In this document: one piece after another, positions 1-32,057 of the stretch
Numbering within the stretch: position 1 is the stretch's first letter
Layout: the number at the start of each line of letters is the position of its first letter
Assembly: GCA_964350465.1 (NCBI GenBank)
Contig: CAYGKE010000004.1
Span: 20,616-84,615, forward strand
DNA from: an uncultured Hyphomonas sp.
GTDB taxonomy: Bacteria; Pseudomonadota; Alphaproteobacteria; Caulobacterales; Hyphomonadaceae
DNA: 64,000 nucleotides
Reading direction: 5' to 3'
Program-made: the position numbers and the translations under genes
Notes under the pieces: generated by a model
Databases searched by the model: none
What the model was told of the DNA's origin: nothing
What the model saw: only the letters and a program-made list of their open reading frames with translations

Positions 1-453
1 CGTCAGGGTGTCATCGAGTGCGAAAGCTACGGACCCAGTATCGGGCGCCTGTCGCAAAAGGTTGCAACTAATGGCGCGTTTGATGGTTTTGGTACGCATC
101 CGATTATTGGCGATGCCCAGATGTGCCGGGTGATAGATCGCTCTGGCGGCCCGACACGTCGGCAGGTGCGGGTCTTCCTGCCCTCACCAGACCATCGCGG
201 CGCGACCCCGCCCATGGTATCGGAGGTGTCAATTGGCCTCGAATATGTTGGTGACGAGACGGTTACGGTCGAAGCAGGCACTTTCGACTGTCATCACTTC
301 CGCTATGTCGATGAGGATGGCCCGGGTATGGGCGGCACTCAGCATCCCAATTACGATATGTGGGTCACCAAGGATGACTTCATCTTCGTGCAGGGCGGCG
401 TCGGCGGCTATATGTCGACCTGGTATGAGTTAGTTGAGCTCGAACGCGGTTAG
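1..453 (+). CDS. Hypothetical protein, 5'-truncated by window edge
   Basis: Frame is open from base 1 (RQGVIECESYGPSIGRLSQ...) through track ORF 121..453; stop overlaps that of the convergent ORF at 450. Confidence 0.7.
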   Translation, partial: RQGVIECESYGPSIGRLSQKVATNGAFDGFGTHPIIGDAQMCRVIDRSGGPTRRQVRVFLPSPDHRGATPPMVSEVSIGLEYVGDETVTVEAGTFDCHHFRYVDEDGPGMGGTQHPNYDMWVTKDDFIFVQGGVGGYMSTWYELVELERG

Positions 454-815
454 TCGACTTTCGCAAACTCTTCGGCGACATCCTCGCTCGATGCTTCGTC
501 GCCGCGATCCAGCGCTTCGCGGTCTTGCTGCAGGATGCGGAAGATACGGGCGATATATTCCTGCATCCACAGGCCGCGCTCATCGGCGGCCTGCTTGCTC
601 GGGACATACGCGTCGATACTGGCCTTGGACACGGTCTCGCCCGCTTCAAGCAAGCGCTCGATCGTATCCATACGTTCGTGCATGACGGCGATTTCCTGGA
701 TCAGCGCGAGGTTTATGTTCATCACCCGCTCGACATCAGGGTTTTCGAGGAACCAGGGGCGTTTACCTTTGGCCTTGGCTCCGGCGAGAGCAATTGGGTC
801 AATGGTCTGTGTCAT
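450..815 (-). CDS. Conserved hypothetical protein (121 aa) coupled to the methyltransferase
   Basis: Starts 2 nt after the methyltransferase stop; helical, AKGKRPWF motif. Confidence 0.75.
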   Translation of the reverse strand: MTQTIDPIALAGAKAKGKRPWFLENPDVERVMNINLALIQEIAVMHERMDTIERLLEAGETVSKASIDAYVPSKQAADERGLWMQEYIARIFRILQQDREALDRGDEASSEDVAEEFAKVD

Positions 816-817
816 GG

Positions 818-2056
818 TCAGGCTACCTTTTTCGCGCCGACGACATGCCAGGCAGCTTTTCGGCCAAAGTCTTCGCTGTCATCGTCAGCCGCGTCCGGGA
901 AGACGTCCTTGTCGACCACCGCGGCAACGCCGCCATGCATGATCTGATTGGCACCGAAGCCGGCGTCTTTCATCCAGGCGTCCATGTCGATTTCATGCAT
1001 CTTGGTCCAGAACGGCTCATTATTGTAGAAGGCATCCCAGTCGCGCATGGCCTGCTCAAATAGTGGCATGTCCTCGCTATATTGCGGCTGTTCGACATGC
1101 AGGACGATGCCGCCGGGTTTCAGAAGACGCTGCGTCTCGGCAAAGATTTTGGGCATCGACTTGTAGCTGGTCTCATGCAGGAACATGGTCGACTGCACCC
1201 AGTCAAAGCTTTCATCTTCGAAACAGGAAAGATCAGAAACATCATCCTGAATGAAGGTGACATTCTCGATCCCCATACTCTTGGCGCGAGCGAGCCCGTA
1301 GCGCAGCATAGGTGCCCCGGCATCAACGGCGATGACCTCGGCATCGGGGAAGGCGGCTGCAATGGGGAGGACATTGTGGCCAAGACCTGCCCCGATGTCG
1401 AGGATACGTTTAGGCTTGAAATCATCGCCAAAGGTCTGCTTGACCCATTCGGCAACAGCGACCCCACCGCCATCATTATAACGTCCGAGCATGCCGCCCG
1501 TTGTGGCGAAGATGCCCGCGTCGTAATTAGCGGGACCAGTAATGTCGCCCGGGACAAGTTCGGTATGATAGCTGCCCGGCATACAGTGATGGTCGATCGC
1601 TTCGGTTGAGCGTGGCTGTTTGAATTTCGGGTCCAGCACGAGGCGCTCGTCGCCTTCGGTAAGCTGTCGCACTTTTTCATTTAGCTCTTCGGCCTGACGC
1701 AGTGTGACCCAGCGACCAGCCTGCTGGCGGGTTTCCATCGTTGCCCGGCGCAGCGCCGACCACCACTGAAACATCGGATCTTTGGTCAGGGCTTTGCGAA
1801 CCTCATGACGGGATTTGAAATCGCGTTTGTTCTCTTTTTTGAAGGCAGGCTCTACGCGTGCCCCAAAGGCCTCGCCAACACCTGGCATGACTTTGGTCGA
1901 AAGATGCCGATTCATCTGTGCCAGAAAATTGAACCGTGCAATCTCGTCATGAGTTGTTTCGGGATAGACGCCATGGCGACCAACGACACGGTAATCCGGC
2001 GGTCCATCATACTCGATATCAGCTTTTTCTGGGACTGAGTGCGCGCTATCTGCCAT
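818..2056 (-). CDS. Class I SAM-dependent methyltransferase with long N-terminal extension
   Basis: Motif I RILDIGAGLG, VIAVDAG, FDWVQSTMFLHE, LLKPGG; upstream GGAG. Confidence 0.85.
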   Translation of the reverse strand: MADSAHSVPEKADIEYDGPPDYRVVGRHGVYPETTHDEIARFNFLAQMNRHLSTKVMPGVGEAFGARVEPAFKKENKRDFKSRHEVRKALTKDPMFQWWSALRRATMETRQQAGRWVTLRQAEELNEKVRQLTEGDERLVLDPKFKQPRSTEAIDHHCMPGSYHTELVPGDITGPANYDAGIFATTGGMLGRYNDGGGVAVAEWVKQTFGDDFKPKRILDIGAGLGHNVLPIAAAFPDAEVIAVDAGAPMLRYGLARAKSMGIENVTFIQDDVSDLSCFEDESFDWVQSTMFLHETSYKSMPKIFAETQRLLKPGGIVLHVEQPQYSEDMPLFEQAMRDWDAFYNNEPFWTKMHEIDMDAWMKDAGFGANQIMHGGVAAVVDKDVFPDAADDDSEDFGRKAAWHVVGAKKVA

Positions 2057-2132: not shown

Positions 2133-2148
2133 AAAAGATATATCATTT
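2133..2148 (+). promoter_or_regulatory. Operator A copy 1 (AAAAGATATATCATTT)
   Basis: 16-mer with palindromic GATATATC core in a divergent intergenic region; identical copies at 24171 and 29209. Confidence 0.75.
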
Positions 2149-2499: not shown

Positions 2500-3336
2500 A
2501 TGGGACGGTTTTCAGGAAAAACGGCCGTGATCACCGGCTCAGGCCGTCGCAAGGGCCTTGGGGAAGCGATTGCCAAACGCCTCGCCGAGGATGGCGCAAA
2601 TATTGTCATCTCGGATATTGGTGCACCGCGTGATGACGCCACTGGCGCGGAACACATTGGCTCCACCGATGAGATGGAAGCCATCGCTGCCGACATGCGC
2701 GCGCTTGGCGTCGATGCTTCGACCTGCGTGTGCGATGTTCGCTCACTCGAAGACGTGCGCGCGCTTGCGAAACATGCTGTCGACACGCATGGCAGTCTCG
2801 ATATCTGGGTCAATAATGCCGGCATCGGCTATATCATGAAGCCGCTGCTGGAGGTGACCGAAGACGACTGGCGCGCTGTGATCGATGTCAATCTGACGGG
2901 TGCCTTTTTCGGCGTGAAGGCGGCTGCCGAAGTTATGACCAAGCAAGGCAAGGGCGGGCGGATTATTAATGTCGCATCGCAGGCGGCCAAGTCGGGCTTC
3001 CCGCATGCGCAAGCCTATACGTCCTCGAAACATGGACTCGTTGGTCTTGTGCGCTCAGCCGCAGTTGAACTGGGCGGCGACAAGATCACGGTCAACAATG
3101 TTTGCCCGAACCATGTCACGACGGGGCTTGGCGCCTGGCAGAATGAGTATTTCGCAAAAGTCGTTGGCGCAGATTCGGTTGATGATTATCTCAAGGCCAT
3201 GGCGGCGCGGATTCCATTGGGACGACCCGGATTGCCTGAGGACACTGCGAATGCGGTGGCCTGGCTATGCTCTGATGAGGCCAACTATATTACTGCTGAG
3301 AGCATGAATGTCTCAGGCGGCGAGGAACCGCACTGA
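2500..3336 (+). CDS. SDR family oxidoreductase
   Basis: TGSGRRKGLG, NNAG, YTSSK catalytic motif. Confidence 0.9.
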   Translation: MGRFSGKTAVITGSGRRKGLGEAIAKRLAEDGANIVISDIGAPRDDATGAEHIGSTDEMEAIAADMRALGVDASTCVCDVRSLEDVRALAKHAVDTHGSLDIWVNNAGIGYIMKPLLEVTEDDWRAVIDVNLTGAFFGVKAAAEVMTKQGKGGRIINVASQAAKSGFPHAQAYTSSKHGLVGLVRSAAVELGGDKITVNNVCPNHVTTGLGAWQNEYFAKVVGADSVDDYLKAMAARIPLGRPGLPEDTANAVAWLCSDEANYITAESMNVSGGEEPH

Positions 3337-4235
3337 TGGTGGTCCCTCCCGATCCTGCCCCGAAGGACTTCACTTGGCCGGGCGGCGCCAAACTTGCGCT
3401 GTCAATTGTCGTGAATGTCGAGGAAGGCGCTGAGAAGCGCGTTGATGAGGGCGACAAGAAGCCTGAACCGGTCGATGAGCTGAAAGCGGTGCCATCTGCG
3501 CCGATCCGCGTATTCTCGAATGAAAGCAACTACCAGTACGGTATCAATCGTGGCGCGCCGCGTGTCTTGAAGCTGCTCGACAAGGCGGGCGTGAACGCAA
3601 CCTGGACCGTCTGCGGGCAAGCGCTTGAAAAGGCACAATGGCTTGCCGATGCCTTGATGGCGCGCGGGGATGAACCGGCCGACCATGGCCATAAATGGGC
3701 CTTCACGGCCTTTATGGATGAAGACCGAGAGACGGCATTTATCGAGAAGAGCGCGGCCAGTATCGAGAAGACCTGCGGGCGTCGTCCGGCCGGTTGGCTG
3801 TCACGCTACCTCTATTCAGAAAATACCCGGCGCATTCTCAAGGCGCAGGGCTACACCTACCATATGGATGATTTTTCCGACGACTTTCCGTATTGGGATC
3901 AGGTCGACATGGGCAACGGAACGCGTGAGCCGATGGTGATCCTGCCTTATGCGATCGATAGCAATGACATGAAATTCTGGATTGATCCGTCTTTCACGAC
4001 GCAGATGTGGATCGACTATGCCAAGCAGACTTTTGATTGGCTGCTCAATGAGTCTGAAACTGAAGGCGCGCGGATGATGAGCCTTGGGCTGCATTTGCGT
4101 ATCATCGGTCGACCCGGCCGTATCGGCGCGCTGGAAGAAGTGCTGGATTATGTGACCAGTAAATCCGGGGTCTGGATCGCCACACGTGAACAAATCGCGC
4201 AGCACTTTGCTGTGCACGTGAAGCCGGAGAGTTGA
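3336..4235 (+). CDS. PuuE/allantoinase-like CE4 (polysaccharide deacetylase fold) hydrolase
   Basis: WPGGAKLALSIVVNVEEG, DHGHKW, GLHLRIIGRPGR. Confidence 0.8.
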   Translation: MVVPPDPAPKDFTWPGGAKLALSIVVNVEEGAEKRVDEGDKKPEPVDELKAVPSAPIRVFSNESNYQYGINRGAPRVLKLLDKAGVNATWTVCGQALEKAQWLADALMARGDEPADHGHKWAFTAFMDEDRETAFIEKSAASIEKTCGRRPAGWLSRYLYSENTRRILKAQGYTYHMDDFSDDFPYWDQVDMGNGTREPMVILPYAIDSNDMKFWIDPSFTTQMWIDYAKQTFDWLLNESETEGARMMSLGLHLRIIGRPGRIGALEEVLDYVTSKSGVWIATREQIAQHFAVHVKPES

Positions 4236-4236: not shown

Positions 4237-4863
4237 ATGACACGGAAACTATTGGCAGTGCTTAGTGTGCTAGCTCTATCTGGCTGCATCGTCATCGAGT
4301 CAGATGAAGTTCATTCTGAAGTCGCGCGAGAGATTGAGCGCGAGATCGTTGCCGACAAAGCCGAGGCTGCTGTCGCCAACCCGCTTGATCTACGCCGCAC
4401 AACTTTGGTCGTTCGGGACATTGAGAGGTCGCTCGCTCTATATCGCGACGCGCTGGGCATGACCGTCGAGTATGATCAGGAATTGACCTCACCGGGCCTT
4501 AGCATGCGATATGGCGCCGATGGTGCGAACCGCTCGCGCCTCGTGCTCTTGAAAGCCAATGACAGCTTCATCGGTATGCTTGGTCTGTGGCAGTTCCTTG
4601 ATCAGACCGAGAAAGATCTGGCTGGACCTGACGCCGCCGATTTCACGCCCGGAGAGATCGTTCTCCTGTTCAATTCCAAGACCCTGGATGAGACTTTTCC
4701 TGCCGCCGCCGCAGCGCCGGGTGTGCAAATAGTCGGCGAACCGCATGAGCGGCGTTATCCCTCACCGGCCGGCGACATTGTCGTGATGGTGTCTATGCTG
4801 GTCGATAATGACGGGCATACGATCGAGCTCAACCAGATTATTTCCGATCCGCGTAATCCATGA
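4237..4863 (+). CDS. VOC/glyoxalase-fold lipoprotein
   Basis: Lipobox LALSG-C; TLVVRDIERSLALYRDALG and DNDGHTIEL VOC motifs. Confidence 0.75.
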   Translation: MTRKLLAVLSVLALSGCIVIESDEVHSEVAREIEREIVADKAEAAVANPLDLRRTTLVVRDIERSLALYRDALGMTVEYDQELTSPGLSMRYGADGANRSRLVLLKANDSFIGMLGLWQFLDQTEKDLAGPDAADFTPGEIVLLFNSKTLDETFPAAAAAPGVQIVGEPHERRYPSPAGDIVVMVSMLVDNDGHTIELNQIISDPRNP

Positions 4864-5420
4864 CACGGCTATCTCCCTTGTCCCTTGATCAGGTCGATCC
4901 GGAAACACGGTCCATGATCGAGAATGCAGAGAATCTGATGGGGTTTGTCCCGAATGATGCGCTGGTCATGGCCCGCCACCCGGCTTTGCTCAAAGCCATG
5001 TGGGGCTTAGTTGCAGCGATCTATGGACCGGGCGATGTGGACAATGGCTTGAAGCGATTGGTCGGAGAAGCAGCAAGCAAAGCTGCCGGTTGTTTCTATT
5101 GCTCGGCCCATGCCGCTCATGGCGCGCGGGAACATGGTGTCTCAGCTGAGAAGATCGAAGCGGTCTGGTCGTTTGAGGATAGCCCGCTTTTCACTGAGGC
5201 TGAACGTGCAGCTATTGCACTGGCCATGAAGGCGGGTGCCATACCTAATGAAACCGAAGACACGGATTTTGATCGCTTGAAACAGAATTTCAGCGATCGT
5301 CAGATCACAGAAATCGTTGCCGTCATTGCCATGTTTGGCTTCCTCAATCGATGGAACACAACGCTGGGCACAGCGCTGGAGCCGATGCCGATGGCTTCAG
5401 TGGAAGGACTTGCCTCATGA
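4860..5420 (+). CDS. AhpD-like / carboxymuconolactone decarboxylase family protein
   Basis: GCFYCSAH (CxxCxxH), FTEAERAAI, FLNRWN. Confidence 0.8.
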   Translation: MTRLSPLSLDQVDPETRSMIENAENLMGFVPNDALVMARHPALLKAMWGLVAAIYGPGDVDNGLKRLVGEAASKAAGCFYCSAHAAHGAREHGVSAEKIEAVWSFEDSPLFTEAERAAIALAMKAGAIPNETEDTDFDRLKQNFSDRQITEIVAVIAMFGFLNRWNTTLGTALEPMPMASVEGLAS

Positions 5421-6520
5421 TCAGGACGTTACGGCTGCTTGCTATTCTTGGCGGTCTTGGCCTCGCGTCTTGTGTAGCCCCAGCACCGCAGACCCCCGCC
5501 ATTGCACAGACTACGGCAGCGCCCTGGTCGCCGCCGCCGATGGTTAAGCCGGAACCGATCACGCGCCAGCCCTGGCAGGAGGCGGTCGTCAGTGTGCGTG
5601 ATATCGACACGACAGCCCGGTTTTTTCTTGAAGTAGCCGGTTACGAGGTCCGCACACGCGGACCGGTCGATTCCGCCATGCTTGAACATTGGGGGCTGCC
5701 CGCTGAAGCGAGTGCTGAGGCACTCGTTCTTGGTCGTCCTGGGCACGATCAGGGTCAGGTCAGGCTGGTTGAATTCAAAGACGCCGGCCGGCAAGTGCCG
5801 ATGCGTCCGGGCGCGCGTGCTTGGGATACGGGTTGTTACTTCTCACTCATGGTGCGCGCCAAAGATCTTGAGGCACGTTACGAAGAAGCGCTCGCGCTGG
5901 GCTGGTGGACCGAAACGCCCATTGCCGATCTTGAGTTTGGCACGTCAGTCCTGAAGATCGTCATCTTTCGCGGCCCTGACGGATTGCAGGTCCAAGCCTA
6001 TGAGCGTATCAGTCCGGAACTGCCCGAGGCGATTGGGCCATTTGAGCGTATGACGCAGCCTTTCAACGTGATGCAAATGGTGGCTGACCGCGACAAGACG
6101 CGAGAGCTTCTGGTCGGTGTCCTAGGTTTCGATACGTTCTGGTTCGGCCCGCCCTATGTTGATGAAGAGCCGACCTATATGCCAATTGGCATTCCTTATA
6201 ATCTGACGACCAGTGTGCATTATGGCGCCGGCATCTTCTATCCGCAGCCAGGTGAGTTCGGCCGGATGGAAAGTATTGAAATCATGGATCTGGAAGGCCG
6301 TGATTATTCCGACCGCTGCGCCGCGCCGAATTACGGCATCTTGGCGGTCCGTTTCCCTGTCGAGGATCTCGAAACGGCTCGTACCATGATTGAAGCGCGC
6401 GGCTGGCCGATTGCACGGGCAAAGACACAAACTGATATTGCTGGACTGGGCGAGGTTGAGATATTGGGCATCGATACGCCAGACGGTGCGATGGTAGATT
6501 TCTATGCGCTGGTTCCCTGA
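5417..6520 (+). CDS. Tandem-VOC-domain lipoprotein
   Basis: ATG 5417 overlaps the previous stop (ATGA); lipobox LAS-C; repeated VOC strands (SVRDIDTTARFF, GPDGL, TPDGAMVDF). Confidence 0.7.
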   Translation: MIRTLRLLAILGGLGLASCVAPAPQTPAIAQTTAAPWSPPPMVKPEPITRQPWQEAVVSVRDIDTTARFFLEVAGYEVRTRGPVDSAMLEHWGLPAEASAEALVLGRPGHDQGQVRLVEFKDAGRQVPMRPGARAWDTGCYFSLMVRAKDLEARYEEALALGWWTETPIADLEFGTSVLKIVIFRGPDGLQVQAYERISPELPEAIGPFERMTQPFNVMQMVADRDKTRELLVGVLGFDTFWFGPPYVDEEPTYMPIGIPYNLTTSVHYGAGIFYPQPGEFGRMESIEIMDLEGRDYSDRCAAPNYGILAVRFPVEDLETARTMIEARGWPIARAKTQTDIAGLGEVEILGIDTPDGAMVDFYALVP

Positions 6521-6535: not shown

Positions 6536-6564
6536 TTGACCTCTGCTTATACGCGCCCTAATTT
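6536..6564 (+). promoter_or_regulatory. Putative sigma70 promoter of the CitE-MaoC operon
   Basis: TTGACC-17 nt-TAATTT; the -10 overlaps operator B. Confidence 0.55.
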
Positions 6565-6576
6565 GTCCGGACAAAT
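6561..6576. promoter_or_regulatory. Operator B copy 1 (ATTTGTCCGGACAAAT, perfect palindrome)
   Basis: Perfect 16-bp palindrome 11 nt upstream of ATG 6588; resembles HutC-subfamily GntR boxes. Confidence 0.75.
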
Positions 6577-6587: not shown

Positions 6588-7406
6588 ATGATACCCACTT
6601 TTCGTTCCTTGCTTTTCGTGCCAGGCGCACGGCCTGATCGTTTTGATAAAGCGGCGTCGGCTGGCGCTGATACGATTATCATTGATCTGGAAGACGCTGT
6701 TCTGCGCGCTGACAAAGTTGAGGCGCGATCAGCTTCGCTCGGTTGGCTGGCGCACCGTGAAAAGACCGTTTGCGCCGGCATACGCATCAATTCGCCGAGA
6801 ACTGCCGAGGGGTGCGCCGATATCGCCGCGCTCGCCATGTCCGGCTGCAGCCCGGACTTTGTCATGGTGCCGAAAGCCGAAACGGGCGTGGATATGGAAA
6901 TTGTCGGCGAAGCCTTGGGCGGCGGTGCCTCACTAATCGCAGTGATCGAAAGTGGACGCGGCTTGCGCCGAGCTTTTGACATTGCCCAGCAATCGGCTGG
7001 CGGTATCCTGTTTGGTGGCGCAGATTTCAGCGCAAGTGTCGGCGCAGACCTGTCAGATTGGGATGCCATGCTGACAGCGCGAGGAACAATCGCAGCAGCC
7101 AGCGGTGCTGCGGGTATCCCCTGCTATGACGTGCCTTACCTGGACATAAAAAATGACGAAGGGCTGCGCGCCAGCACTGCGAAGGCCAAGTCCCTGGGTT
7201 TCTCCGGCCGTACCTGTATTCACCCTGTACAAGTGGAGGGTGTGAACGACGTGTTTTCGCCGACCCCCGCAGAAATTGTAGAGGCCCGCGAAATTATCAA
7301 ATCCCTTAATGACTCAGATGGCGGTGCTGTCCTGCACAAAGGAAAACTGGTCGATCGCCCGATCATTCTCGCGGCGCAAAGAACACTCGCCAAGATCGAC
7401 GAATAG
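6588..7406 (+). CDS. CitE-like acyl-CoA lyase (HpcH/HpaI aldolase-citrate lyase family; citramalyl/malyl-CoA lyase type)
   Basis: RSLLFVPG, IIDLEDAV, GIRIN, VPKAE, IES, FGGADF, CIHP. Confidence 0.85.
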   Translation: MIPTFRSLLFVPGARPDRFDKAASAGADTIIIDLEDAVLRADKVEARSASLGWLAHREKTVCAGIRINSPRTAEGCADIAALAMSGCSPDFVMVPKAETGVDMEIVGEALGGGASLIAVIESGRGLRRAFDIAQQSAGGILFGGADFSASVGADLSDWDAMLTARGTIAAASGAAGIPCYDVPYLDIKNDEGLRASTAKAKSLGFSGRTCIHPVQVEGVNDVFSPTPAEIVEAREIIKSLNDSDGGAVLHKGKLVDRPIILAAQRTLAKIDE

Positions 7407-7941: not shown

Positions 7942-7950
7942 GAGGCCATC

Positions 7951-24212: not shown

Positions 24213-25010
24213 CTATTTTTCGGTCTTCCAGTCTGTTTGAGCGGCATCATTACGGGTCAGGCGCATGTGATATTCGAAACGATCAGCGCGGTAATGGGCC
24301 GTAATGTCCTGAACCGGTCGTCCACTCTTGTCGCTCATGACGCGGTGGATGCGTAGCAAAGGTGACCCGGGCGCAACGCCGAGCGTTGCTGCAACCGCTG
24401 GTTCCGCTGCTGCCGCTGAAATGCTTTGTTCGGCTTCGACAGGTCCATGACCTGCCTTTTCCAGAAGCTTGATCAAGGACTGGCTTGTCAGCTCGGACTC
24501 CTCATAACCTTGAGCGACATCATAAGGTATATAGGTTATAAGATGAGAGAAGGGTTCGCCGTCCATCGACCTTACGCGAACGATCCTCTGCACACTTTCC
24601 CCGGCTTTCAGCTTCAGCGCGCCGCGAATGGCAGGACTGGCTGTGCCCACTGTGCAATCGAGCAGTTTAACGCTGGTCTCAACACCCATGCGCGTCAGTC
24701 CGTCGATCATTGTCTCAAAGCTGCCTTTGATCATCGACCCGTTGGCATCATAGGTGACGACGGTACCAATGCCCCGTTGACGTCTGACCAGACCGGCGAC
24801 AGCGAGTTCGTTCATCGCGCGCTTTACAGTGATCCGCGAAACGCCCAGCATTTGCGTTACGTCCTGCTCGGCTGGCAGATGATCACCATGCGCGAGGCCA
24901 CCATCGAGGATTTTCTTGCGCAGAATATCATAGATCTGCTGGTATAGCGGCGTTCCTGATTTCTCGTCGATCTGGCTGGGTTTGAGTTTCAGCATGGGAG
25001 TCCGGGCCAT
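24213..25010 (-). CDS. GntR family regulator (HutC subfamily, UTRA domain) #2
   Basis: PLYQQI, LPAEQDV, VSRITVKRAM; C-terminal UTRA ending YRADRFEY. Confidence 0.9.
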   Translation of the reverse strand: MARTPMLKLKPSQIDEKSGTPLYQQIYDILRKKILDGGLAHGDHLPAEQDVTQMLGVSRITVKRAMNELAVAGLVRRQRGIGTVVTYDANGSMIKGSFETMIDGLTRMGVETSVKLLDCTVGTASPAIRGALKLKAGESVQRIVRVRSMDGEPFSHLITYIPYDVAQGYEESELTSQSLIKLLEKAGHGPVEAEQSISAAAAEPAVAATLGVAPGSPLLRIHRVMSDKSGRPVQDITAHYRADRFEYHMRLTRNDAAQTDWKTEK

Positions 25011-25086: not shown

Positions 25087-25509
25087 CTATTCTCCTAGCC
25101 CCTTGGAAAGATCATTCGTTGGCCCGCCGGCGGCGCGGTGAGCGACAGAGTCAGGGCTACCCCAGATCTTGCCGCCAATATACTGGCCGATCGAGTTGGA
25201 AAACTCCTTGTATTCAATCGATTCATACATGCCGCAGGTCAGGTAGGGGTCGCCATTCATCAGCGCCTGTGCATCGCTAATATCGTCGGCGAGGACTAGA
25301 AAAACCGAACCAACCAGCGCTTCTCCGCCCGGCTCTCGGATCGGGCCGGCCGTAATATAGCGCGTCCAGTTGTCCTCGACATGCTGCAAATGCCCGGCAA
25401 GATGATCAAGGCGCGGTTTGGCACTGTCAGGACCGTCCCGGCAAATCACGAGATAGCATTTTTGCGGGAGCCGAGGCACTTCAGGGGGCTGCTTGGGAAA
25501 GGTCGGCAT
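25087..25509 (-). CDS. YciI family protein
   Basis: CRDGPD..PRLDHLAGHL, AGP, GSVFLV, DPY. Confidence 0.78.
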   Translation of the reverse strand: MPTFPKQPPEVPRLPQKCYLVICRDGPDSAKPRLDHLAGHLQHVEDNWTRYITAGPIREPGGEALVGSVFLVLADDISDAQALMNGDPYLTCGMYESIEYKEFSNSIGQYIGGKIWGSPDSVAHRAAGGPTNDLSKGLGE

Positions 25510-25518: not shown

Positions 25519-26634
25519 CTATTTCAAAACGCCGCTGGCAACGAGGCGATCTATGACAGCTTGCTGCTGGGCGATAGCGTCAGCGCGTTCAATCATCTGA
25601 GCATCAGGTGTGCGATTGGCCGGCGCATGATTGGCTTGCCCGTATCCGCTTGCAAAAGCCGCATTAGGAAGGCGCGACAGCGTATTGGTCATGCCTGTCT
25701 TACGCCGGGTTTCCCGCAGCGCGCCAATGTCCAATACGGCATTTGCGTTCAGGGTTTCGCCCTGGTTCGCCTCTGCGAGACTGCGGCCATACCAGTCGAG
25801 CACGATTGACATGCCGTCAGTTGATGCGCTGGGCACTGGCGTACCGATTATCTCGGCGCTGTTGGCGGAAACGACGTAGGCAATATTCTCGATTGCACGT
25901 GCCTTCTTTGTAATGTGCTTTGGTGTCAGCGTGGGCGCGCCGACTTCGCTGGTTGGGTGGCAGAATATCTCCGCGCCCTTAAAGGCCTGCATCCGGGCAA
26001 TCTCTGGATAGAGAATTTCTTCACTGGCAATCGATCCAAGCACGCCAATTTCCGTGTGTGCGACCGGGAAAACGGCATCCTCGCCATAGATATCCAGATA
26101 CTTGTCCCAGACGTCATAAGGGCTTGGTGTGTACAGTGAAATCATCCTGCGATAGCGCAGCACAATATCGCCATTAGGGCCGTAGATCACGTTCGATTGG
26201 AAATAGAGATCCGGAAAGTTCGGATCAGTCTCGTAATGGTTGGAGCAAAGATAGATGCCAAAAGTCTGGGCGAGGCTTGCTAGCTTATCTGGAAAAGCGC
26301 CTTCCATGGGAATAGCGGCCTTATCCTGCCATTCTTCGCGCGTTTCCCCGAGTGGGAACCCAGTCATCCAGTATTCAGGCAAGACAACCAGTTTTACATC
26401 ATAGCCATTGAAGCCTTTCAGAAAGCCCCGGGCTGAGCCGATTTGGCCCCGGACACGGCCAATTGCCAGCTCTATTCGTGCGTGTGCGTCTTCAATCGTG
26501 CTGTCCTGATTGACCGCATCGCAAACAGTTTGAAGGGCAAGAGCGGTATAGCGCATTGATGGGTTTCCTTGGGCGAGAACGGGAGCAGCTAAAGTCGCCG
26601 CTCCGGCACTGAGAAGAAGTTCACGGCGGGTCAT
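25519..26634 (-). CDS. Nitrilase/carbon-nitrogen hydrolase-fold protein, Tat signal, non-canonical triad
   Basis: MTRRELLL..VLA-Q Tat signal; LVVLPEY; YRR in place of YRK; IASEEILYPE in place of ICYD..FPE. Confidence 0.8.
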   Translation of the reverse strand: MTRRELLLSAGAATLAAPVLAQGNPSMRYTALALQTVCDAVNQDSTIEDAHARIELAIGRVRGQIGSARGFLKGFNGYDVKLVVLPEYWMTGFPLGETREEWQDKAAIPMEGAFPDKLASLAQTFGIYLCSNHYETDPNFPDLYFQSNVIYGPNGDIVLRYRRMISLYTPSPYDVWDKYLDIYGEDAVFPVAHTEIGVLGSIASEEILYPEIARMQAFKGAEIFCHPTSEVGAPTLTPKHITKKARAIENIAYVVSANSAEIIGTPVPSASTDGMSIVLDWYGRSLAEANQGETLNANAVLDIGALRETRRKTGMTNTLSRLPNAAFASGYGQANHAPANRTPDAQMIERADAIAQQQAVIDRLVASGVLK

Positions 26635-27533
26635 GAGGCGTCCTGAAATGTGCGTATACTATCAGCGGCGGTCATTAGCTTTAGGCCTGTGCTTGTAGCG
26701 AGTGCATTGAGGATTTTACGTACGGCATGTATTCGAAACGGCTGCCCAAGCACATAGGGGGTCATCGTGAAGGCGAGGGCGGCGGCGCCCTCTTTATCGT
26801 GCAGGTCGACGCTATACTGCGCCGCTTCGATAATCTGCTCAGCCCAATCGTCTTCGGATTGCGAGCGATCAAGCAAGAGTTTGAAATCGCCAAGCTCGCC
26901 ATAGTGGGGCAGCGCGGTGATCGAACCGTTTGCTGTTCTCATAGCAAGCGGACGCTGGTCGGCCTCCCAGTCGAGTACAGTATTGAAACCTGCCTCAGTG
27001 AGGAGATCGAGCGTGCGATAGCTCTCGTTTCGCGCCGGGCTCATCCAGGTCGTGGCATCTGGGAACACTGATCGCGCATCGGCGATGAGCGCTCGCTCTT
27101 CAGCCTCGCTCAGGCCATCATGATGAATATGTGCGGTAGATACACCGTGGGCCGCGACCTCGTGCCCGCCCGCTTTAATGGCATCGATGAGTGGCGGATA
27201 GCGTTTTGCAATCTCGGCATCTACCGCGAACGTGGCCGTCACGCCCGTTGCCGAAAATTCGCGCATTAGGCGAAAAATGCCGATACGGTTGCCGTAATCC
27301 CGCGTCGTGAAATGGCGCAGATCCGGATAGGGCGTCTTCATCGCGCCGGGGTGTTTGAACGGCACGGAAGGCGGGTTCAGAGGAAAAAATTCGACTGGCA
27401 CAATGATTGTGGCGATCGCTTTGGTCCCATCTTTCAAGTAAACCGGCGCGCGTCTGTCGGCAGGCTCCCAGCCATAGTGCGGGTTATCCATGCCAGGCTT
27501 ACGGTGTGGGTAAATCAGATAGTCATCAGGCAT
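26631..27533 (-). CDS. PuuE-like CE4 hydrolase paralogue (conserved His apparently replaced)
   Basis: RDYGNRIGIFRL, EVAAHG, MTPYVLGQPFR; ATG 27533 follows the upstream stop, preferred over the track's 27668. Confidence 0.8.
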   Translation of the reverse strand: MPDDYLIYPHRKPGMDNPHYGWEPADRRAPVYLKDGTKAIATIIVPVEFFPLNPPSVPFKHPGAMKTPYPDLRHFTTRDYGNRIGIFRLMREFSATGVTATFAVDAEIAKRYPPLIDAIKAGGHEVAAHGVSTAHIHHDGLSEAEERALIADARSVFPDATTWMSPARNESYRTLDLLTEAGFNTVLDWEADQRPLAMRTANGSITALPHYGELGDFKLLLDRSQSEDDWAEQIIEAAQYSVDLHDKEGAAALAFTMTPYVLGQPFRIHAVRKILNALATSTGLKLMTAADSIRTFQDAS

Positions 27534-27537: not shown

Positions 27538-28482
27538 CTAGGAGATTGGGACAAAGCCGGTTCCTCCCGTCGCGACACCTCGGGCTGCGACATCCGCCAA
27601 TGTCTGATCCCAATAGTTCTCGCAGTAGAATTCAGCGATCTCTGCGCCCGTTGTGAACCAGACATCATCGCGGTGGCTGCAAATATGCCTCAGCGCCTCT
27701 TCAAACACGCGCAGGCGATGCGGTTGGCTGACCAGATAGGCGTGCAGTGGGATACACATCACGGTTCCGGACTGTTCGCCTTCCTTCAGCAACTGATCGA
27801 AATGCTTGATCAGCAGATCTGTGTAGCGCTGCGGGCTCCAACCCTGGACCGAATATGTGATGACATCATTCACTTCCAGCGAGTAGGGCATCGACACCAG
27901 CTTTCCGGTCTTGGTCTTGATCGGCTGGGGCTGATCATCCTGGAACAGATCGCACGTATACCAGAAATCATGCTCGGCGATCAGGTCCAGCGTATGCTCG
28001 GTATGCGTCAGCGCCGGGGCGAGATAGCCGCGGATACGTTTGCCGGTTGCACGTTCAACTGTTTCGATACTGTCTGTTAGTACCGCCACTTCCTGCTCTG
28101 GCGACATGCCATACGAATAACGCGTGTTATAAATGCCGTGGGAGAAGAACTCCCAGTTTCTTTCGTTCACGGCTTCGATGATTTCCGGGTGGTGATCAAC
28201 AAGCCCCACCGAGAGCGAGATACTCCCGCGTAGATCATACTTGTCGAACAGATCCATCAGCCGCCAATGACCGACCGTATTGCCCCAGGTGCGCTGTGAA
28301 TAGGCGACGACATCCGGGTTGCCACGTGGCCAGCCGGGACGCTTGTTATTATGTGGCGGCTGAAATTCGTAATACTCTATGTTTGGTGCGATCCAGAAGG
28401 CGAGCTTCTTGCCGCCCGGCCAGACGATCTTGGGCCGTCCTTCATAGGGCCAATAATCATAGAGGTTGGGATCAGCGTGCAT
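27538..28482 (-). CDS. PuuE-like CE4 hydrolase
   Basis: WPGGKKLAFWIAPNIEYYE, EFFSHG, IPLHAYLVSQPHR. Confidence 0.85.
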   Translation of the reverse strand: MHADPNLYDYWPYEGRPKIVWPGGKKLAFWIAPNIEYYEFQPPHNNKRPGWPRGNPDVVAYSQRTWGNTVGHWRLMDLFDKYDLRGSISLSVGLVDHHPEIIEAVNERNWEFFSHGIYNTRYSYGMSPEQEVAVLTDSIETVERATGKRIRGYLAPALTHTEHTLDLIAEHDFWYTCDLFQDDQPQPIKTKTGKLVSMPYSLEVNDVITYSVQGWSPQRYTDLLIKHFDQLLKEGEQSGTVMCIPLHAYLVSQPHRLRVFEEALRHICSHRDDVWFTTGAEIAEFYCENYWDQTLADVAARGVATGGTGFVPIS

Positions 28483-29177
28483 CAGCCCTGATACCTCGCA
28501 ATCGCCTCATGTACCTCGCTGACCGGCACAACGTCGGCATATTTGATCAGCAAGTCGGTCAGGTTCGCAAAGTGATAGCTCTCATGCTTGTCGGCGACGC
28601 ATTCCTCCGGGACGATGGTGCGGTAGCCATAACTTAAACTATCAACCGCAGTAGCGCGCACGCATCCTGACGTTGAGCCGCCGGTAACAACAACCGTGTC
28701 GACCTTGTGCCATGTCAGGAAACTGTTGAGCGGCGTTTCAAAGAAAGCGGACGGCATACGTTTGGTGTAGACCGCATCCACAGCCGGATCGATGGTCAAA
28801 CGATCATCAAACGCGGTGCGCTCTGAGCCATATTTGATATTCTGCAGGCTGTCCGGCGTATCCGTTCGCGTGCCCCAGACGCCGGCATCAGCGGCATTGT
28901 CCATATAGGCAACATGCGTCCAGATCACTGGCAGACCTTTTGAACGTGCGGCGTTTGAGATGGCATCAATATGCTCCATCTGACGAGGGTCCGTGATGTA
29001 GGCGGTCTTGTAGAGATCAGGCCGTGTGTACGCTTTTTGCGGGTCAACATTCACGATAGCGAGCTTGTCGCCAAACCCGAACCGCGCGCGCATAGGGTTG
29101 GAGCGAACCTCTTCGAATATCTCACGCGCTGTTTTGTCTGAGGTTACCATGGTCGGTTGGGACATATCGTGGGTCAT
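28482..29177 (-). CDS. Isochorismatase/cysteine hydrolase (maleamate amidohydrolase / N-carbamoylsarcosine amidase-like)
   Basis: Asp-Lys-Cys triad: VNVDPQ, TKRMPSAFF, STSGCVRATAVD. Confidence 0.88.
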   Translation of the reverse strand: MTHDMSQPTMVTSDKTAREIFEEVRSNPMRARFGFGDKLAIVNVDPQKAYTRPDLYKTAYITDPRQMEHIDAISNAARSKGLPVIWTHVAYMDNAADAGVWGTRTDTPDSLQNIKYGSERTAFDDRLTIDPAVDAVYTKRMPSAFFETPLNSFLTWHKVDTVVVTGGSTSGCVRATAVDSLSYGYRTIVPEECVADKHESYHFANLTDLLIKYADVVPVSEVHEAIARYQG

Positions 29178-29208: not shown

Positions 29209-29224
29209 AAATGATATATCTTTT
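29209..29224 (-). promoter_or_regulatory. Operator A copy 3 (AAATGATATATCTTTT on +)
   Basis: Exact reverse complement of copies 1 and 2, in a divergent intergenic region. Confidence 0.75.
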
Positions 29225-29253: not shown

Positions 29254-29688
29254 ATGAAGAGTTTTATTCTGGGTGCGATACTTGGCTTGGCAGGCGGGGT
29301 TGGTATTGCTGCTTGCGTTGGCGTTCAGCCGCAGATCGCGCAAGGACAAGAAACTGCGCCAGAACCACCAGCTTACATGATCGTGCTTGGTGAAGTGCAT
29401 GACCGCCCGGCCTTTATGGAAGGGTACGCAGCCAAGTTACCGCCCATCTACGAGCAATATGGGGGTCACTATATCGCAATTGGGGGAGGTCCAGGCATCG
29501 AAGTCCTCGAGGGTGACTATGCCCCGCCGAGCTATGTGATCAGTAAATGGGAGAAGGCGCAGGACGCGCGGGATTTCTGGAACAGCCCGGAATATGACGC
29601 GCTCAGGCGCGCACGCATCAACAATAATTGGGGCACATTCGACGTCCTATTGGTGAACGGTCTCCCAAACCCTGCTGCCGCTGAATGA
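29254..29688 (+). CDS. DUF1330 family protein with signal/lipoprotein peptide
   Basis: GGAGG-ATG 29254; GIAA-C; AYMIV, YGGHYI, VLEG, FWNSPEY..LR. Confidence 0.75.
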   Translation: MKSFILGAILGLAGGVGIAACVGVQPQIAQGQETAPEPPAYMIVLGEVHDRPAFMEGYAAKLPPIYEQYGGHYIAIGGGPGIEVLEGDYAPPSYVISKWEKAQDARDFWNSPEYDALRRARINNNWGTFDVLLVNGLPNPAAAE

Positions 29689-29748: not shown

Positions 29749-29777
29749 TTGGACATCTCGCGCAAAAGGTATATCAT
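29749..29777 (+). promoter_or_regulatory. Putative sigma70 promoter of the TonB-dependent receptor
   Basis: TTGGAC-17 nt-TATCAT. Confidence 0.55.
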
Positions 29778-29779
29778 TT
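29764..29779 (+). promoter_or_regulatory. Operator A copy 4 (AAAAGGTATATCATTT)
   Basis: 15/16 match; covers the -10 hexamer. Confidence 0.68.
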
Positions 29780-29839
29780 GTGCGGGAGATAAAAAAAGCC
29801 CGGTCAAAAACAATGCCTAAATTTGAGGAGATTTTGGTG

Positions 29840-32002
29840 ATGAAAAAGAATTTGATAGGAACAGCGGCGGCTTTTGCCATCGCAGCCGCATGGTCTGCAC
29901 CAGCGGTCGCGCAAGACTCAGGCGAAACGGATGCGCGCCGCCTAGGCACAGTAACCGTCACATCGCAGCGCACCGAGGAAAATCTGCAGGATGTCCCGAT
30001 TGCCGTAACAGCGCTTTCGGCCGTCCAGCTCGAGGACAAGCAAGTCGCGGATATGCTTGATCTGCAATTTCAGGTCCCGAACATCAACCTTGCGACAAAT
30101 ACGGGTACAGCCAACGCGGCCCGTATTTTCCTGCGCGGTGTGGGTGAGGATGAAAGCCGCGGCGCGGTCGATCAGGCGGTCGGAATCTATGTGGACGGAG
30201 TTTATATCGGCCGTTCCGTAGGTTCACTCTTTGACGTGGTTGACCTGGAGCAGATCGAAGTCCTGCGTGGCCCACAAGGCACGCTTTATGGCCGCAACAC
30301 GATTGGCGGCGCGATCAAGCTGACATCGGTCAAGCCACAGTTCGAGAATAGTGGTGACATCCGCACAACGATTGGCGACAATGGCCGCTTCGACCTGCGC
30401 GGTACCGGAAACATGCAGCTTGGCGAGAATACTGCTTTCCGTGTCACTGGCCTACTGCGCGAGCGTGATGGCTTCCATACCGTCATTCCGAATGGCGGCA
30501 ATGCCGGTCAGGGCAAGGACGTTGGCCGCCTGCACATTGCGTCCTTCCGCGCCAGCCTCCTGCACAATTTCAATGAAGACTGGAGTATTTTCGTTGCGGC
30601 GGACTCAACGATTGATCGTTCTGATCCAATCCCTGATTCAGCAGCGCCGCCAAATGATGCCGACAATAACCTGTTCACCATCGAACCTCTGGGTGCCACC
30701 GTATGTCCGCCAGGAAATGGCCCTTTCACCCCGATTGGGTGTTTCACGGCCTATGACCAGCGGGCTAAAACGCAAGGCATTTCTGCGAATATCGAGGGCA
30801 ATCTGGGTAATTTCACCTTCAACTCTTTGACCGGATACCGGCAGTTGGATGATGAACTGTCGACCCGCATCGGCTTCCCGTTCACGCAGATGACCGATCA
30901 GGATCAGCTCAGCCAGGAATTCACCTTGGCGTCCAACCATGACGGTCCCTTCAATTATGTTGTCGGCTACTATTACTGGAGCGAAGACCTTCAGCTGGAC
31001 TCGGTCTTTGTCTTCCCGTTCACCCTGAACTCGTCGACTGATTCCCATGCGATCTTCGGGCAGGGTACATATGAAGTGAATGACCAGTTGTCTCTGACAG
31101 GCGGTCTGCGCTTCACATCCGAATCCAAGGACTTTGACGGCGAGGCACTCTTGTCCGGTTTGTCACGGACCGATTCAGCTGACTTCGATAATGTCAGCTA
31201 TACAATCGGTGCCGATTATCGCTTCAATGAGTCTGTTCTGGGCTATGCCAAGTTCTCAACTGGCTTCAAGTCGGGCGGCTGGTCGCCGGATGCGTTCAGT
31301 CCAGCAGCTGTGTTCCTGCCTGTCCGCGAAGAAACGCTCGATTCGTTTGAGATTGGCTTCAAGTCGGACCTGTTTGACGACAGTCTTCGCCTGAACGCCG
31401 CCTACTTCTTCAACGACTATACCGATCTTCAAATCGGGGCGACGGTGCCAGGTCTCGGCTTTACCCGGTTCAATGTTGAAGGTGTTGAGATCCAGGGTCT
31501 TGAATTCGAGGCAACCTTGCAAGTGACCGACAATTTCCAGCTGAACGGTAATCTTGGCATCCTCGACGGGGAGTATACCGATCTTAGCACGTCATCGGCG
31601 GGCGGCTTGACCAATAGCGGCGCCACGCCAGCTTGCGGCGGCGTTGTTTCAATCGATTGTGCGAAAACACTCAGCCTCAAGAACGCGCCGGAATACAAGG
31701 GCAGCATTGGTGCCCTATTCAGCGTGCCAATGGGCTCAGGTGAGCTGATCGCCTCGGGTGACATCAATTTCGAGGATGAGAGCTGGAGCCTTGTTGCCAA
31801 CAGCCCGGATCATGCCCTGATCGATGTGCCAACCATCATCAATGCCCGGATCAAGTATCAGTCCGATGCTGGCTGGTCGGCGGCAATCTGGGGCAAGAAT
31901 ATCGGTGATGAGGAATATTACCGTGCTTCCTCGGCTGGTTCCTTCACAGCCTATGCCTCCGAACCAGCAACCTTTGGTATTGATCTCGGCTACGAATTCT
32001 AA
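29840..32002 (+). CDS. TonB-dependent receptor
   Basis: Signal peptide, TonB-box-like TVTVTSQR, plug motifs (IFLRGVG, LRGPQGTLYGRN), C-terminal Phe; ATG 29840 after GAGGAG. Confidence 0.93.
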   Translation: MKKNLIGTAAAFAIAAAWSAPAVAQDSGETDARRLGTVTVTSQRTEENLQDVPIAVTALSAVQLEDKQVADMLDLQFQVPNINLATNTGTANAARIFLRGVGEDESRGAVDQAVGIYVDGVYIGRSVGSLFDVVDLEQIEVLRGPQGTLYGRNTIGGAIKLTSVKPQFENSGDIRTTIGDNGRFDLRGTGNMQLGENTAFRVTGLLRERDGFHTVIPNGGNAGQGKDVGRLHIASFRASLLHNFNEDWSIFVAADSTIDRSDPIPDSAAPPNDADNNLFTIEPLGATVCPPGNGPFTPIGCFTAYDQRAKTQGISANIEGNLGNFTFNSLTGYRQLDDELSTRIGFPFTQMTDQDQLSQEFTLASNHDGPFNYVVGYYYWSEDLQLDSVFVFPFTLNSSTDSHAIFGQGTYEVNDQLSLTGGLRFTSESKDFDGEALLSGLSRTDSADFDNVSYTIGADYRFNESVLGYAKFSTGFKSGGWSPDAFSPAAVFLPVREETLDSFEIGFKSDLFDDSLRLNAAYFFNDYTDLQIGATVPGLGFTRFNVEGVEIQGLEFEATLQVTDNFQLNGNLGILDGEYTDLSTSSAGGLTNSGATPACGGVVSIDCAKTLSLKNAPEYKGSIGALFSVPMGSGELIASGDINFEDESWSLVANSPDHALIDVPTIINARIKYQSDAGWSAAIWGKNIGDEEYYRASSAGSFTAYASEPATFGIDLGYEF

Positions 32003-32028
32003 GCCAGGACCAACTGACTACCATTTAG

Positions 32029-32057
32029 AAGCCCCGGCCTCGCGCCGGGGCTTTTTT
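32029..32057 (+). terminator. Rho-independent terminator
   Basis: AAGCCCCGGC-CTCGC-GCCGGGGC-TTTTTT after the receptor stop. Confidence 0.85.

Follow-up and report, generated by a model that had tools for sequence, protein, structure and literature searches.

What does a gene island of some 32 kb in an uncultured Hyphomonas sp. degrade, and does it encode one pathway or several? The question concerns positions 1–32057 of a window of 64 kb (the whole stretch of DNA that was analysed), in which 34 open reading frames (ORFs) were present. Gene families were assigned from Pfam and NCBIfam scans. Those named for this region in an initial annotation were all recovered by Pfam: three PuuE-like CE4 proteins, an amidase, an isochorismatase, a nitrilase-fold protein, a coenzyme A (CoA)-dependent dicarboxylate module, two GntR/UTRA regulators and one TonB-dependent receptor (Table 1). 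Only the CMD protein among the proteins of 1–32057 reached an NCBIfam curated cut-off (TIGR01926, 83.5 versus 81.8 bits), and by these scores the island enzymes would be paralogues of the named families rather than members. The reading that is favoured here, by a modest degree, is that of one jointly regulated catabolic island in which a nitrogen-containing ring compound would undergo imide opening, half-amide hydrolysis to an alkyl-maleate or alkyl-succinate and CoA-dependent cleavage; the likeliest substrate class, to go by the enzyme families, would be alkyl-substituted maleimides or succinimides and related pyrrolinone fragments. The gene set appears to join cyclic-imide metabolism to an itaconate-like pathway. 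As had been surmised, no match to it was found in the full-text literature or among curated models (NCBIfam equivalogs).

That the genes belong together was borne out by comparison, as they were contiguous and co-conserved across several families of marine Alphaproteobacteria; the lack of co-conservation that would have spoken against the initial annotation was thus not observed. The set was syntenic in Henriciella (the closest relatives), Hyphomonas, Hirschia, Parvularcula, Marinicaulis and many metagenome-assembled genomes (MAGs); homologues of the nitrilase-fold protein were found in Henriciella (up to 93%), Hyphomonas, Hirschia, Parvularcula, Marinicaulis, Maricaulis, Aquidulcibacter, other aquatic Alphaproteobacteria and a few Gammaproteobacteria. 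Conservation was counted in 54 loci, each 15 kb or longer and with the nitrilase-fold gene at its centre. The whole right half was present in order in 30 of these, 11 had the same genes plus a LeuCD-type hydratase, six were partial and seven held only CE4_2 and the nitrilase-fold gene, or the nitrilase-fold gene alone, amid unrelated genes. The left half was equally conserved. Both halves were contiguous in Parvularcula lutaonensis (loci L084 plus L002) and in contig_9 of ERZ25072723; L089, L090 and L092–L094 had the left half together with the first part of the PrpD operon, and L095 retained only the left-most block. Cultured carriers were P. lutaonensis KCTC 22245, Hirschia maritima DSM 19733, Hirschia litorea, Hyphomonas polymorpha PS728 and Hyphomonas beringensis, and the window's own DNA was present in biofilm metagenomes.

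Joint regulation was indicated by two operator families, which had been proposed from the window and proved to be real, both recurring at orthologous promoters in relatives. Operator 1 (AAAWGATATATCWTTT) was found in four copies (at 2133, 24171, 29209 and 29764), all of them promoter-proximal, with none in the remaining 32 kb and 0.02 expected by chance. It was present in exact form in 38 of 88 loci, at orthologous promoters where inspected, and in relatives it also stood at the VOC293/DUF1330 promoter of an extended left part of the cluster. Operator 2 (TTTGTCCGGACAAA) forms a perfect palindrome at 6562 and has near-copies at 14348 and 29734. It is statistically weak within the window alone; in L060, L068, L074–L076, L084, L089, L090 and L092 it was kept before CitE/MaoC and at the divergent promoter of CoAT1/PrpD_a. 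From the positions of the genes, GntR1 is presumed to bind operator 2 and GntR2 to bind operator 1. Operator 1 would then tie together the 'upper' operons (methyltransferase and HapK–short-chain dehydrogenase/reductase–CE4_1 onward, the oxidase operon, the hydrolase operon, DUF1330 and the receptor), and operator 2 the 'lower' operons (the CoA genes and PrpD–ligase–amidase).

Two distinct operators and regulators also suit another reading, in which two or three independent systems travel together: a C5-dicarboxylate (itaconate/methylsuccinate/mesaconate) module under GntR1, and a nitrogen-scavenging module of amide/imide hydrolases under GntR2 with its own receptor. This is considered unlikely, although it deserves weighing. 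The operator-1 operons lie on both sides of the operator-2 block, in an arrangement kept across families, and the operator-2 operon PrpD–PrpD–ligase–amidase itself holds an amidase. In addition, the core of operator 2 occurs in Parvularcula within the isochorismatase/DUF1330 intergenic region, and the near-copy at 29734 in the window coincides with the start of the receptor ORF.

The initial annotation had counted five or six amide/imide hydrolases. Six hydrolase-fold proteins were indeed found, two of which (CE4_2 and the nitrilase-fold protein) are without canonical catalytic residues. PuuE was the best NCBIfam model for all three CE4 paralogues, which are mutually 23–28% identical, and its cut-off (TIGR03212, 424.6 bits) was missed by each of them (CE4_1, 218.7; CE4_3, 117.1; CE4_2, 55.6 bits). 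CE4_1 has the hallmark of the metal-independent cyclic amidohydrolases PuuE and BpIH, namely a Glu-His-Trp instead of an Asp-His-His metal triad plus a catalytic His (PuuE His259): Glu29, His117, Trp121 and His253 are complete and were kept in seven of seven orthologues. The structure 3S6O, the best solved relative of CE4_1, is 91% identical to the imidase BpIH, the Glu-His-Trp triad of which is common to PuuE, and CE4_1 would, on this likeness, open cyclic imides; imidases (EC 3.5.2.16) hydrolyse rings of the succinimide, maleimide or glutarimide type. CE4_2 is without this hallmark, carrying Thr at the PuuE His259 position in 77 of 77 orthologues. It stood beside the nitrilase-fold gene in 45 of 47 full loci, which suggests that the two proteins form a two-protein unit, possibly exported together.

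The cyclic-imide pathway of Blastobacter consists of an imidase plus a half-amidase. The island resembles this type of metabolism (Blastobacter; the BpIH/AfIH imidases; Aspergillus nidulans HxnM/HxnN) in that a PuuE-like CE4 protein would open the imide and a separate amidase would cleave the half-amide; CE4_1 retains the Glu-His-Trp triad, and the structure nearest to it is the BpIH-like 3S6O. The island differs in having three CE4 paralogues, one of them without the catalytic His, and in adding periplasmic components, a receptor and a CoA-dependent lower pathway.

For the second hydrolytic step, the isochorismatase-family protein has the fold and Cys172 of the Asp-Lys-Cys triad, of which only the Cys was mapped. 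Its matches in the PDB were N-carbamoylsarcosine amidohydrolase (3.2e-28), 4l07 (3.2e-25) and 3ot4/3uao (1.3e-20), the last two entries being NicF and 4l07 the maleamate amidohydrolase Ami; N-carbamoylsarcosine amidohydrolase thus scores slightly better than the NicF/Ami chains. Fold and conserved Cys are shared with NicF and Ami of the nicotinate and nicotine pathways, but the island is without 2,5-dihydroxypyridine dioxygenase, N-formylmaleamate deformylase and maleate isomerase. The nicotinate, nicotine, pyridoxine, Rut and cyanuric-acid pathways were rejected as candidates because their signature enzymes were absent and no equivalog model was matched at its cut-off; catabolism of flavin or dimethylbenzimidazole was set aside because it requires ring-hydroxylating oxygenases, none of which is present.

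In the nitrilase-fold protein, alignment to PH0642 showed that Glu87 is kept while the canonical Lys and Cys are replaced by Arg163 and Ser204, a combination that was invariant in 14 homologues. Among 30 representatives of the wider nitrilase family, the five closest and two others were Glu-Arg-Ser, nine were Glu-Arg-Cys and twelve domains were canonical. The sister clade is Glu-Arg-Cys, and the Glu-Arg-Cys relatives indicate that the Arg substitution predates the loss of the Cys. The protein may still be an enzyme. Its twin-arginine (Tat) signal was conserved in orthologues. An AlphaFold model from a shallow alignment was poor (pLDDT 54.7) and was not used for fold searching. Some relatives were tandem two-domain proteins of 640–745 aa.

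These same hydrolases could point to a substrate of the ureide or hydantoin type (an allantoin-like, N-carbamoyl, pyrimidine- or flavin-derived ring), opened by a PuuE-like protein and stripped by carbamoylases with release of CO2 and ammonia. The allantoinase PuuE is the best model of all three CE4 proteins, N-carbamoylsarcosine amidohydrolase is the top solved relative of the isochorismatase, and the nitrilase superfamily includes carbamoylases and beta-ureidopropionase. Such a substrate is nevertheless judged improbable: every CE4 score is far under the PuuE cut-off, the nitrilase-fold protein is without the Cys nucleophile, no ureidoglycolate, urease or allophanate enzymes are present in the island, and the carbon skeletons of ureides need neither an itaconate-like CoA pathway nor the LeuCD/PrpB-like pair found in variant clusters (described below).

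The products of half-amide hydrolysis would be passed to the CoA module. In Pseudomonas aeruginosa, PA0878–0883 encode Ich, methylsuccinyl-CoA dehydrogenase, a small VOC-fold 2-hydroxyparaconate lactonase (PA0880, 127 aa), the MmgE/PrpD methylsuccinate isomerase, Ict and Ccl. All six families of this itaconate/methylsuccinate cluster (compare also Yersinia RipABC) have counterparts in 6588–17020 of the island, and the clustering of CoA-transferase, acyl-CoA dehydrogenase and MmgE/PrpD genes that marks the itaconate pathway was found in 7951–17020. The two family III CoA-transferases had succinyl-CoA:mesaconate CoA-transferase as their best NCBIfam model, below its cut-off, and the best PDB matches of the MmgE/PrpD proteins were Bacillus subtilis IRG1 (1.3e-35), IDS epimerase and cis-aconitate decarboxylase. 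The island departs from the itaconate cluster in several respects. Its RipC and RipB scores are far below the equivalog cut-offs (for NF038241 RipB_Ich, 230.3 bits with ORF 7309–7941 against a cut-off of 340), it has three CoA-transferases and two PrpD paralogues, the module is set between amide/imide hydrolase operons with its own GntR operator, and the only uptake gene of the island in the window is a TonB receptor rather than a tripartite ATP-independent periplasmic (TRAP) transporter. Judged by the scores, the module would be a paralogous pathway and not the itaconate pathway itself.

Variant clusters add to this picture. Some 15 more distant loci had a LeuC-family large subunit (476 versus a cut-off of 385 bits) and a LeuD/DmdB-family small subunit (160 versus 109 bits) near the hydrolase operon, and most of them also had a PrpB-like lyase of the phosphoenolpyruvate (PEP)-mutase family (290 versus a cut-off of 354 bits). 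These were L055, L059, L063–L065, L070–L072, L074–L077, L080, L082 and L083; in L059 the genes (11137–13986) are directly adjacent to the nitrilase-fold/CE4/isochorismatase operon. The window has none of these hydratase and lyase genes; the CoA route stands in their place. The substrates of LeuCD-type hydratases are 2-substituted maleates, and in the nicotinate fermentation of Eubacterium barkeri DmdAB and 2,3-dimethylmalate lyase turn dimethylmaleate into propionate and pyruvate. The variant clusters hold the same type of enzyme pair near the hydrolase operon (dialkyl-maleate to a 2-oxoacid and an acid); they differ in that the lyase is below the PrpB cut-off and in that no B12 mutase or enamidase is present. 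By analogy, the variants would lend independent support to a substituted-maleate intermediate, and imidase, half-amidase, hydratase and lyase together would make a complete route from a dialkyl-maleimide to central metabolites. The exchange of a LeuCD/lyase route for the CoA route beside the hydrolases is also what is expected if the hydrolases feed a dicarboxylate route, and it tells against separate systems.

For a single pathway, the following scheme is proposed. A nitrogen-containing compound would enter through the TonB-dependent receptor and be handled in the periplasm, for which the candidates are the two VOC-fold lipoproteins, the DUF1330 lipoprotein and the Tat-exported Glu-Arg-Ser nitrilase-fold protein together with CE4_2. 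Cytoplasmic CE4_1 and CE4_3 would open cyclic imide or lactam rings, and the NicF/Ami-like isochorismatase-family amidase and the amidase-signature enzyme would take off the remaining amide nitrogen. The resulting alkyl-maleate or alkyl-succinate would be degraded by the paralogue of the itaconate/methylsuccinate pathway (CoA-transferases, acyl-CoA dehydrogenase, Ich-like hydratase, Ccl-like lyase and the isomerase/decarboxylase-like MmgE/PrpD proteins), while the FAD-linked oxidase and the aldehyde dehydrogenase may oxidize a side chain. In P. lutaonensis these last two are fused into one protein of 1002 aa (L002:13025–16033), which argues that they act in sequence. Export signals were found on at least four proteins, namely Tat on the nitrilase-fold protein, lipoboxes on VOC_a and VOC_b and a lipoprotein-like signal on DUF1330, and part of the pathway would therefore be periplasmic.

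The order of steps had been put forward in the initial annotation, and it gained comparative support from the link to 3S6O, the family match to PA0878–0883 and the LeuCD variants. Several observations weigh against it. The key enzymes fall below the NCBIfam equivalog cut-offs (RipC 221 versus 375, RipB 230 versus 340 and PuuE 219 versus 425 bits), and CE4_2 and the nitrilase-fold protein do not have canonical catalytic residues. The methyltransferase, HapK, short-chain dehydrogenase/reductase, CMD, YCII and DUF1330 proteins, the DUF3598 barrel and the PaaK-like ligase are without an assigned step in the scheme. Two separate regulators could mean two separate inducers. The CoA module varies among relatives, CitE being missing in L084 and the CitE–MaoC–acyl-CoA dehydrogenase block in L085, and the CE4_2/nitrilase-fold pair stands alone amid unrelated genes in some genomes (L048, L050, L052 and L057). 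Both of these last points would also fit independent systems, as would the match of the CoA module by itself to the PA0878–0883 families and the state of L095, in which the methyltransferase/HapK–dehydrogenase–CE4_1–CpeT–VOC block has no CitE, MaoC or CoA-transferase genes after it.

The best model for the receptor was that of a siderophore receptor (154 bits versus a cut-off of 223.5), it has no FRAP/NPNL heme motifs, and it scored 94.7 bits with TIGR01785 (cut-off 316.85). No riboswitch or other RNA was found in the window with Rfam, so that no cobalamin or other ligand clue was obtained for the receptor. It is conceivable, if very improbable, that a secondary metabolite with citrate-like or dicarboxylate units in amide linkage, such as a carboxylate siderophore or its cyclic-imide or photolysis products, is taken up through the TonB receptor and then broken down or recycled by the island. 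A substrate of this kind would agree with the sub-threshold receptor match, the presence of several amidases and the resemblance of the MmgE/PrpD proteins to IRG1/cis-aconitate decarboxylase and IDS epimerase, enzymes whose substrates are citrate-like compounds or aminodicarboxylates. TonB receptors of this kind, however, serve general nutrient uptake in Caulobacterales, and no ferric reductase, siderophore-biosynthesis or iron-regulation genes were recognized in the island (no search for Fur boxes was made).

A tetrapyrrole-derived substrate, which the initial annotation had also raised, was not established. What speaks for it is a CpeT-like gene in five relatives and the ligand-binding folds of the HapK-like and DUF3598-type proteins. 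The CpeT/CpcT-family gene (PF06206, 33 bits versus a cut-off of 21) lies between CE4_1 and VOC_a in L084 (10927–11517), L089 (10903–11520), L091, L092 and L095 (10909–11529); the L089 protein carries a signal peptide, and the family resembles, weakly, the Arabidopsis CpcT-like protein CRL. A first metagenome scan for this gene was empty, and a second, on the conserved C-terminal half, gave two loci. The likeness to the CpcT/CpeT phycobilin lyases is confined to those relatives: no homologue was found anywhere in the 64-kb window, and phycobiliprotein genes are lacking. The DUF3598 gene lies just below its Pfam cut-off (E = 0.0013, 19.6 versus 22 bits) and a sequence search of the PDB was empty, but a fold search succeeded and bore out the assignment: the AlphaFold2 model (pLDDT 96.3) had BFA1 5yvf (E = 4e-8, TM 0.73–0.76) and DUF3598 2o62 as its top Foldseek matches. 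Proteins of the HapK/RedY family are known to be encoded in prodiginine clusters. Oxidation of heme and chlorophyll has been documented to yield maleimides, hematinic acid and amide-bearing mono- and dipyrroles, and no bacterial route for maleimides or hematinic acid turned up in full-text literature searching.

It is accordingly only a doubtful possibility, if slightly less so than that of separate systems, that the island serves surface-attached marine Alphaproteobacteria as a dedicated pathway for the mineralization of oxidized tetrapyrroles (bilins from phycobiliproteins or heme, and chlorophyll breakdown products). In that case, oligopyrrolic fragments or bilin-peptides would enter by the TonB receptor and would be processed in the periplasm by the VOC lipoproteins, DUF1330, the Glu-Arg-Ser nitrilase-fold/CE4 pair and, in some strains, the secreted CpeT-like protein. 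The CE4 imidases would then open the methyl-ethyl- and methyl-vinyl-maleimides and the hematinic acid so formed, the products would be de-amidated, and the alkyl-maleates and alkyl-succinates would be burnt by the itaconate-like CoA route or, in the variants, by the dimethylmaleate-type hydratase and lyase. Against a pigment origin stand the receptor without heme motifs, with its best sub-threshold score as a siderophore receptor, and the absence of a recognizable heme oxygenase or bilin reductase from every locus; the DUF3598 and HapK folds, moreover, do not specify a ligand.

Table 1. Genes and sites of the island in positions 1–32057 (window coordinates).
Feature	Position	Strand	Basis and remarks
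DUF3108-like gene of 247 aa, C-terminal 150 aa	1-453	+	Cut by window edge
Conserved 121-aa protein, always paired with methyltransferase	450-815	-	No Pfam match
S-Adenosylmethionine-dependent class I methyltransferase, ~200-aa N-terminal region without domain match	818-2056	-	Methyltransf_25/31/11 at residues 213-345
Operator 1 site a	2133-2148	.	Methyltransferase/HapK divergent promoter; same site in L084, L085, L089, L090, L092, L095
HapK/REDY-like dimeric alpha+beta-barrel	2180-2494 (ORF opens 2147)	+	PF11639 40.9 bits; PDB 2jdj 4.9e-6
Short-chain dehydrogenase/reductase	2500-3336	+	adh_short_C2 4.4e-57
CE4_1, PuuE/imidase-type cyclic amide hydrolase (putative)	3336-4235	+	Polysacc_deac_1; PDB 3s6o 6.6e-57, PuuE 3cl6 2e-52
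VOC_a, VOC/glyoxalase-fold lipoprotein, LALSGC lipobox	4237-4863	+	PF00903; signal sequence
CMD/AhpD-like 'peroxidase-related' protein	4860-5420	+	PF02627; TIGR01926
VOC_b, two-domain VOC-fold lipoprotein, GLASC lipobox	5417-6520	+	Pfam, sequence
Operator 2 site a	6562-6575	.	Before CitE; perfect palindrome; kept in L084, L089, L090, L092
CitE/Ccl(RipC)-like acyl-CoA C-C lyase	6588-7406	+	PF03328; NF038242 RipC_Ccl 220.8 versus cut-off 375 bits
MaoC/Ich(RipB)-like enoyl-CoA hydratase	7420-7941	+	MC_hydratase + MaoC; start from L086 gene call
Acyl-CoA dehydrogenase, counterpart of methylsuccinyl-CoA dehydrogenase PA0879	7951-9150	+	Pfam/NCBIfam
Two family III CoA-transferases	9150-10292, 10289-11458	+	CoA_transf_3 2.9e-107, 2.9e-97
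DUF3598-type ten-stranded beta-barrel, 150 aa; invariant His, Cys, Arg, Trp	11458-11910	+	Pfam and predicted structure
VOC_c, small single-domain VOC, PA0880 size class	11911-12285	-	PF00903
GntR1, HutC-type GntR/UTRA regulator	12303-13019	-	GntR helix-turn-helix + UTRA (Pfam); place beside operator-2 promoters conserved
CoAT1, acetyl-CoA hydrolase/transferase-family CoA-transferase	13019-14284	-	PF13336 2.5e-49
Operator 2 site b	14348-14361	.	Overlaps PrpD_a start codon
Two MmgE/PrpD proteins	14349-15650, 15647-17020	+	Pfam
PaaK-like adenylating acid-CoA ligase	17023-18417	+	PDB 4r1l 2.3e-42; NCBIfam PaaK models below cut-off
Amidase-signature amidase	18414-19691	+	PF01425 8.5e-88; intact GGSSGG at residues 133-138
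Crotonase-family enoyl-CoA hydratase	19688-20467	-	ECH_1 2.1e-46
Aldehyde dehydrogenase, succinic semialdehyde dehydrogenase-like	20464-21888	-	Pfam/NCBIfam
FAD-linked oxidase/dehydrogenase, VAO/PCMH-GlcD class	21892-23478	-	FAD_binding_4; PDB: D-lactate dehydrogenase, glycolate oxidase, p-cresol methylhydroxylase
Multi-pass membrane protein, 220 aa, about six hydrophobic segments, several His	23493-24155	-	First gene of oxidase operon; 30 of 47 loci
Operator 1 site b	24171-24186	.	Palindrome match, in front of oxidase operon
GntR2, HutC-type GntR/UTRA regulator	24213-25010	-	GntR helix-turn-helix + UTRA (Pfam); present in 36 of 47 loci
YCII-family dimeric alpha+beta-barrel	25087-25509	-	PF03795
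Nitrilase-fold (CN_hydrolase) protein with Tat signal	25519-26634	-	Glu87-Arg163-Ser204 instead of Glu-Lys-Cys
CE4_2, divergent CE4 protein	26631-27533	-	Pfam; constant partner of nitrilase-fold gene
CE4_3, PuuE-like CE4 hydrolase	27538-28482	-	Keeps Glu36, His115, His247; Trp of triad not kept
Isochorismatase-family amidohydrolase, Cys172	28482-29177	-	PF00857
Operator 1 site c	29209-29224	.	Isochorismatase/DUF1330 divergent promoter
DUF1330 protein, lipoprotein-like signal	29254-29688 (ORF opens 29224)	+	PF07045
Operator 1 site d	29764-29779	.	Overlaps promoter-like TGGACA-16-TATCAT before receptor gene
TonB-dependent receptor	29840-32002 (ORF opens 29735; likely start at MKKNLIG signal peptide)	+	Plug + barrel domains
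Intrinsic terminator closing cluster	32036-32057	+	Sequence

Of the genes that were given no part in the scheme, the methyltransferase matched no NCBIfam model at its cut-off and was conserved in all left-half loci. An orthologue of the 121-aa protein adjoined it in L084, L085, L089, L090 and L092 (tblastn), and an unannotated ORF of 119–120 aa took the same position in L093–L095. In L094 an IS1595-family transposase (8059–8718) lies between the methyltransferase and HapK genes, and an HMGL-like lyase lies beside isochorismatase–CE4–CE4. A paralogue of VOC_b stood beside the receptor in 22 of 47 loci. For the multi-pass protein of the oxidase operon, a role as membrane electron acceptor or as permease is conceivable; the left part of L085 holds a paralogue with 27% identity.

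The borders of 1–32057, as drawn in the initial annotation, held on the right and failed on the left. On the right the cluster is closed by the terminator, and the downstream mmsA–acyl-CoA dehydrogenase–mmsB genes adjoined the cluster in none of the 47 related loci, so that this border is sound. These genes belong to an operon for methylmalonate-semialdehyde dehydrogenase, an acyl-CoA dehydrogenase and 3-hydroxyisobutyrate dehydrogenase, followed by a flavin reductase (32226–36262), which represents ordinary valine-type catabolism. No paralogues of cluster genes were found within 36–64 kb of the window. The left border is merely the window edge, beyond which the cluster goes on: frame 1 is open from base 1, and 1–453 covers the C-terminal 150 residues of a protein of 247 aa, with 77% identity to L003:11526–12269. 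This DUF3108-like gene was found inside the cluster in 20 related loci and, in those mapped, between YCII and GntR2, which indicates that the cluster is rearranged in the window relative to close relatives. A DUF1838 gene was seen at a similar position in 27 loci, and it also adjoins the nitrilase-fold gene in a Nevskiaceae MAG (L058). Relatives had about 7 kb more cluster to the left of the methyltransferase, giving a whole island of about 40 kb; the additional genes encode a small DUF1330 protein, a 293-aa VOC-like protein, a CurA-like ene-reductase (282 versus a cut-off of 440 bits), an alpha/beta-hydrolase, a 500-aa major facilitator superfamily transporter and a CrtI/amine-oxidase-like flavoprotein.

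A sequencing run labelled 'RNA?' (X5) was considered as a source of transcripts for 1–33000 and was set aside. Genes, intergenic stretches and the adjacent valine operon were covered at one uniform depth (about 18), which made the run uninformative on expression; with its identity of 90–95%, it has the appearance of genomic DNA from a related strain and not of transcripts.

Little is known, at the level of genes, about what becomes of the tetrapyrrole ring (chlorophyll, heme and phycobilins) and other nitrogen heterocycles in the sea. The island described here is a large, conserved, operator-linked orphan set that is carried by many Caulobacterales and Parvularculales of marine and freshwater biofilms and of coral and plastic surfaces, and its presence in cultured strains makes the proposals directly testable. 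Even if the substrate should prove to be another heterocycle, enzymologists and genome annotators would gain PuuE-type imidases linked to an itaconate-like CoA pathway, a Tat-exported Glu-Arg-Ser clade of the nitrilase fold and two defined GntR operators.

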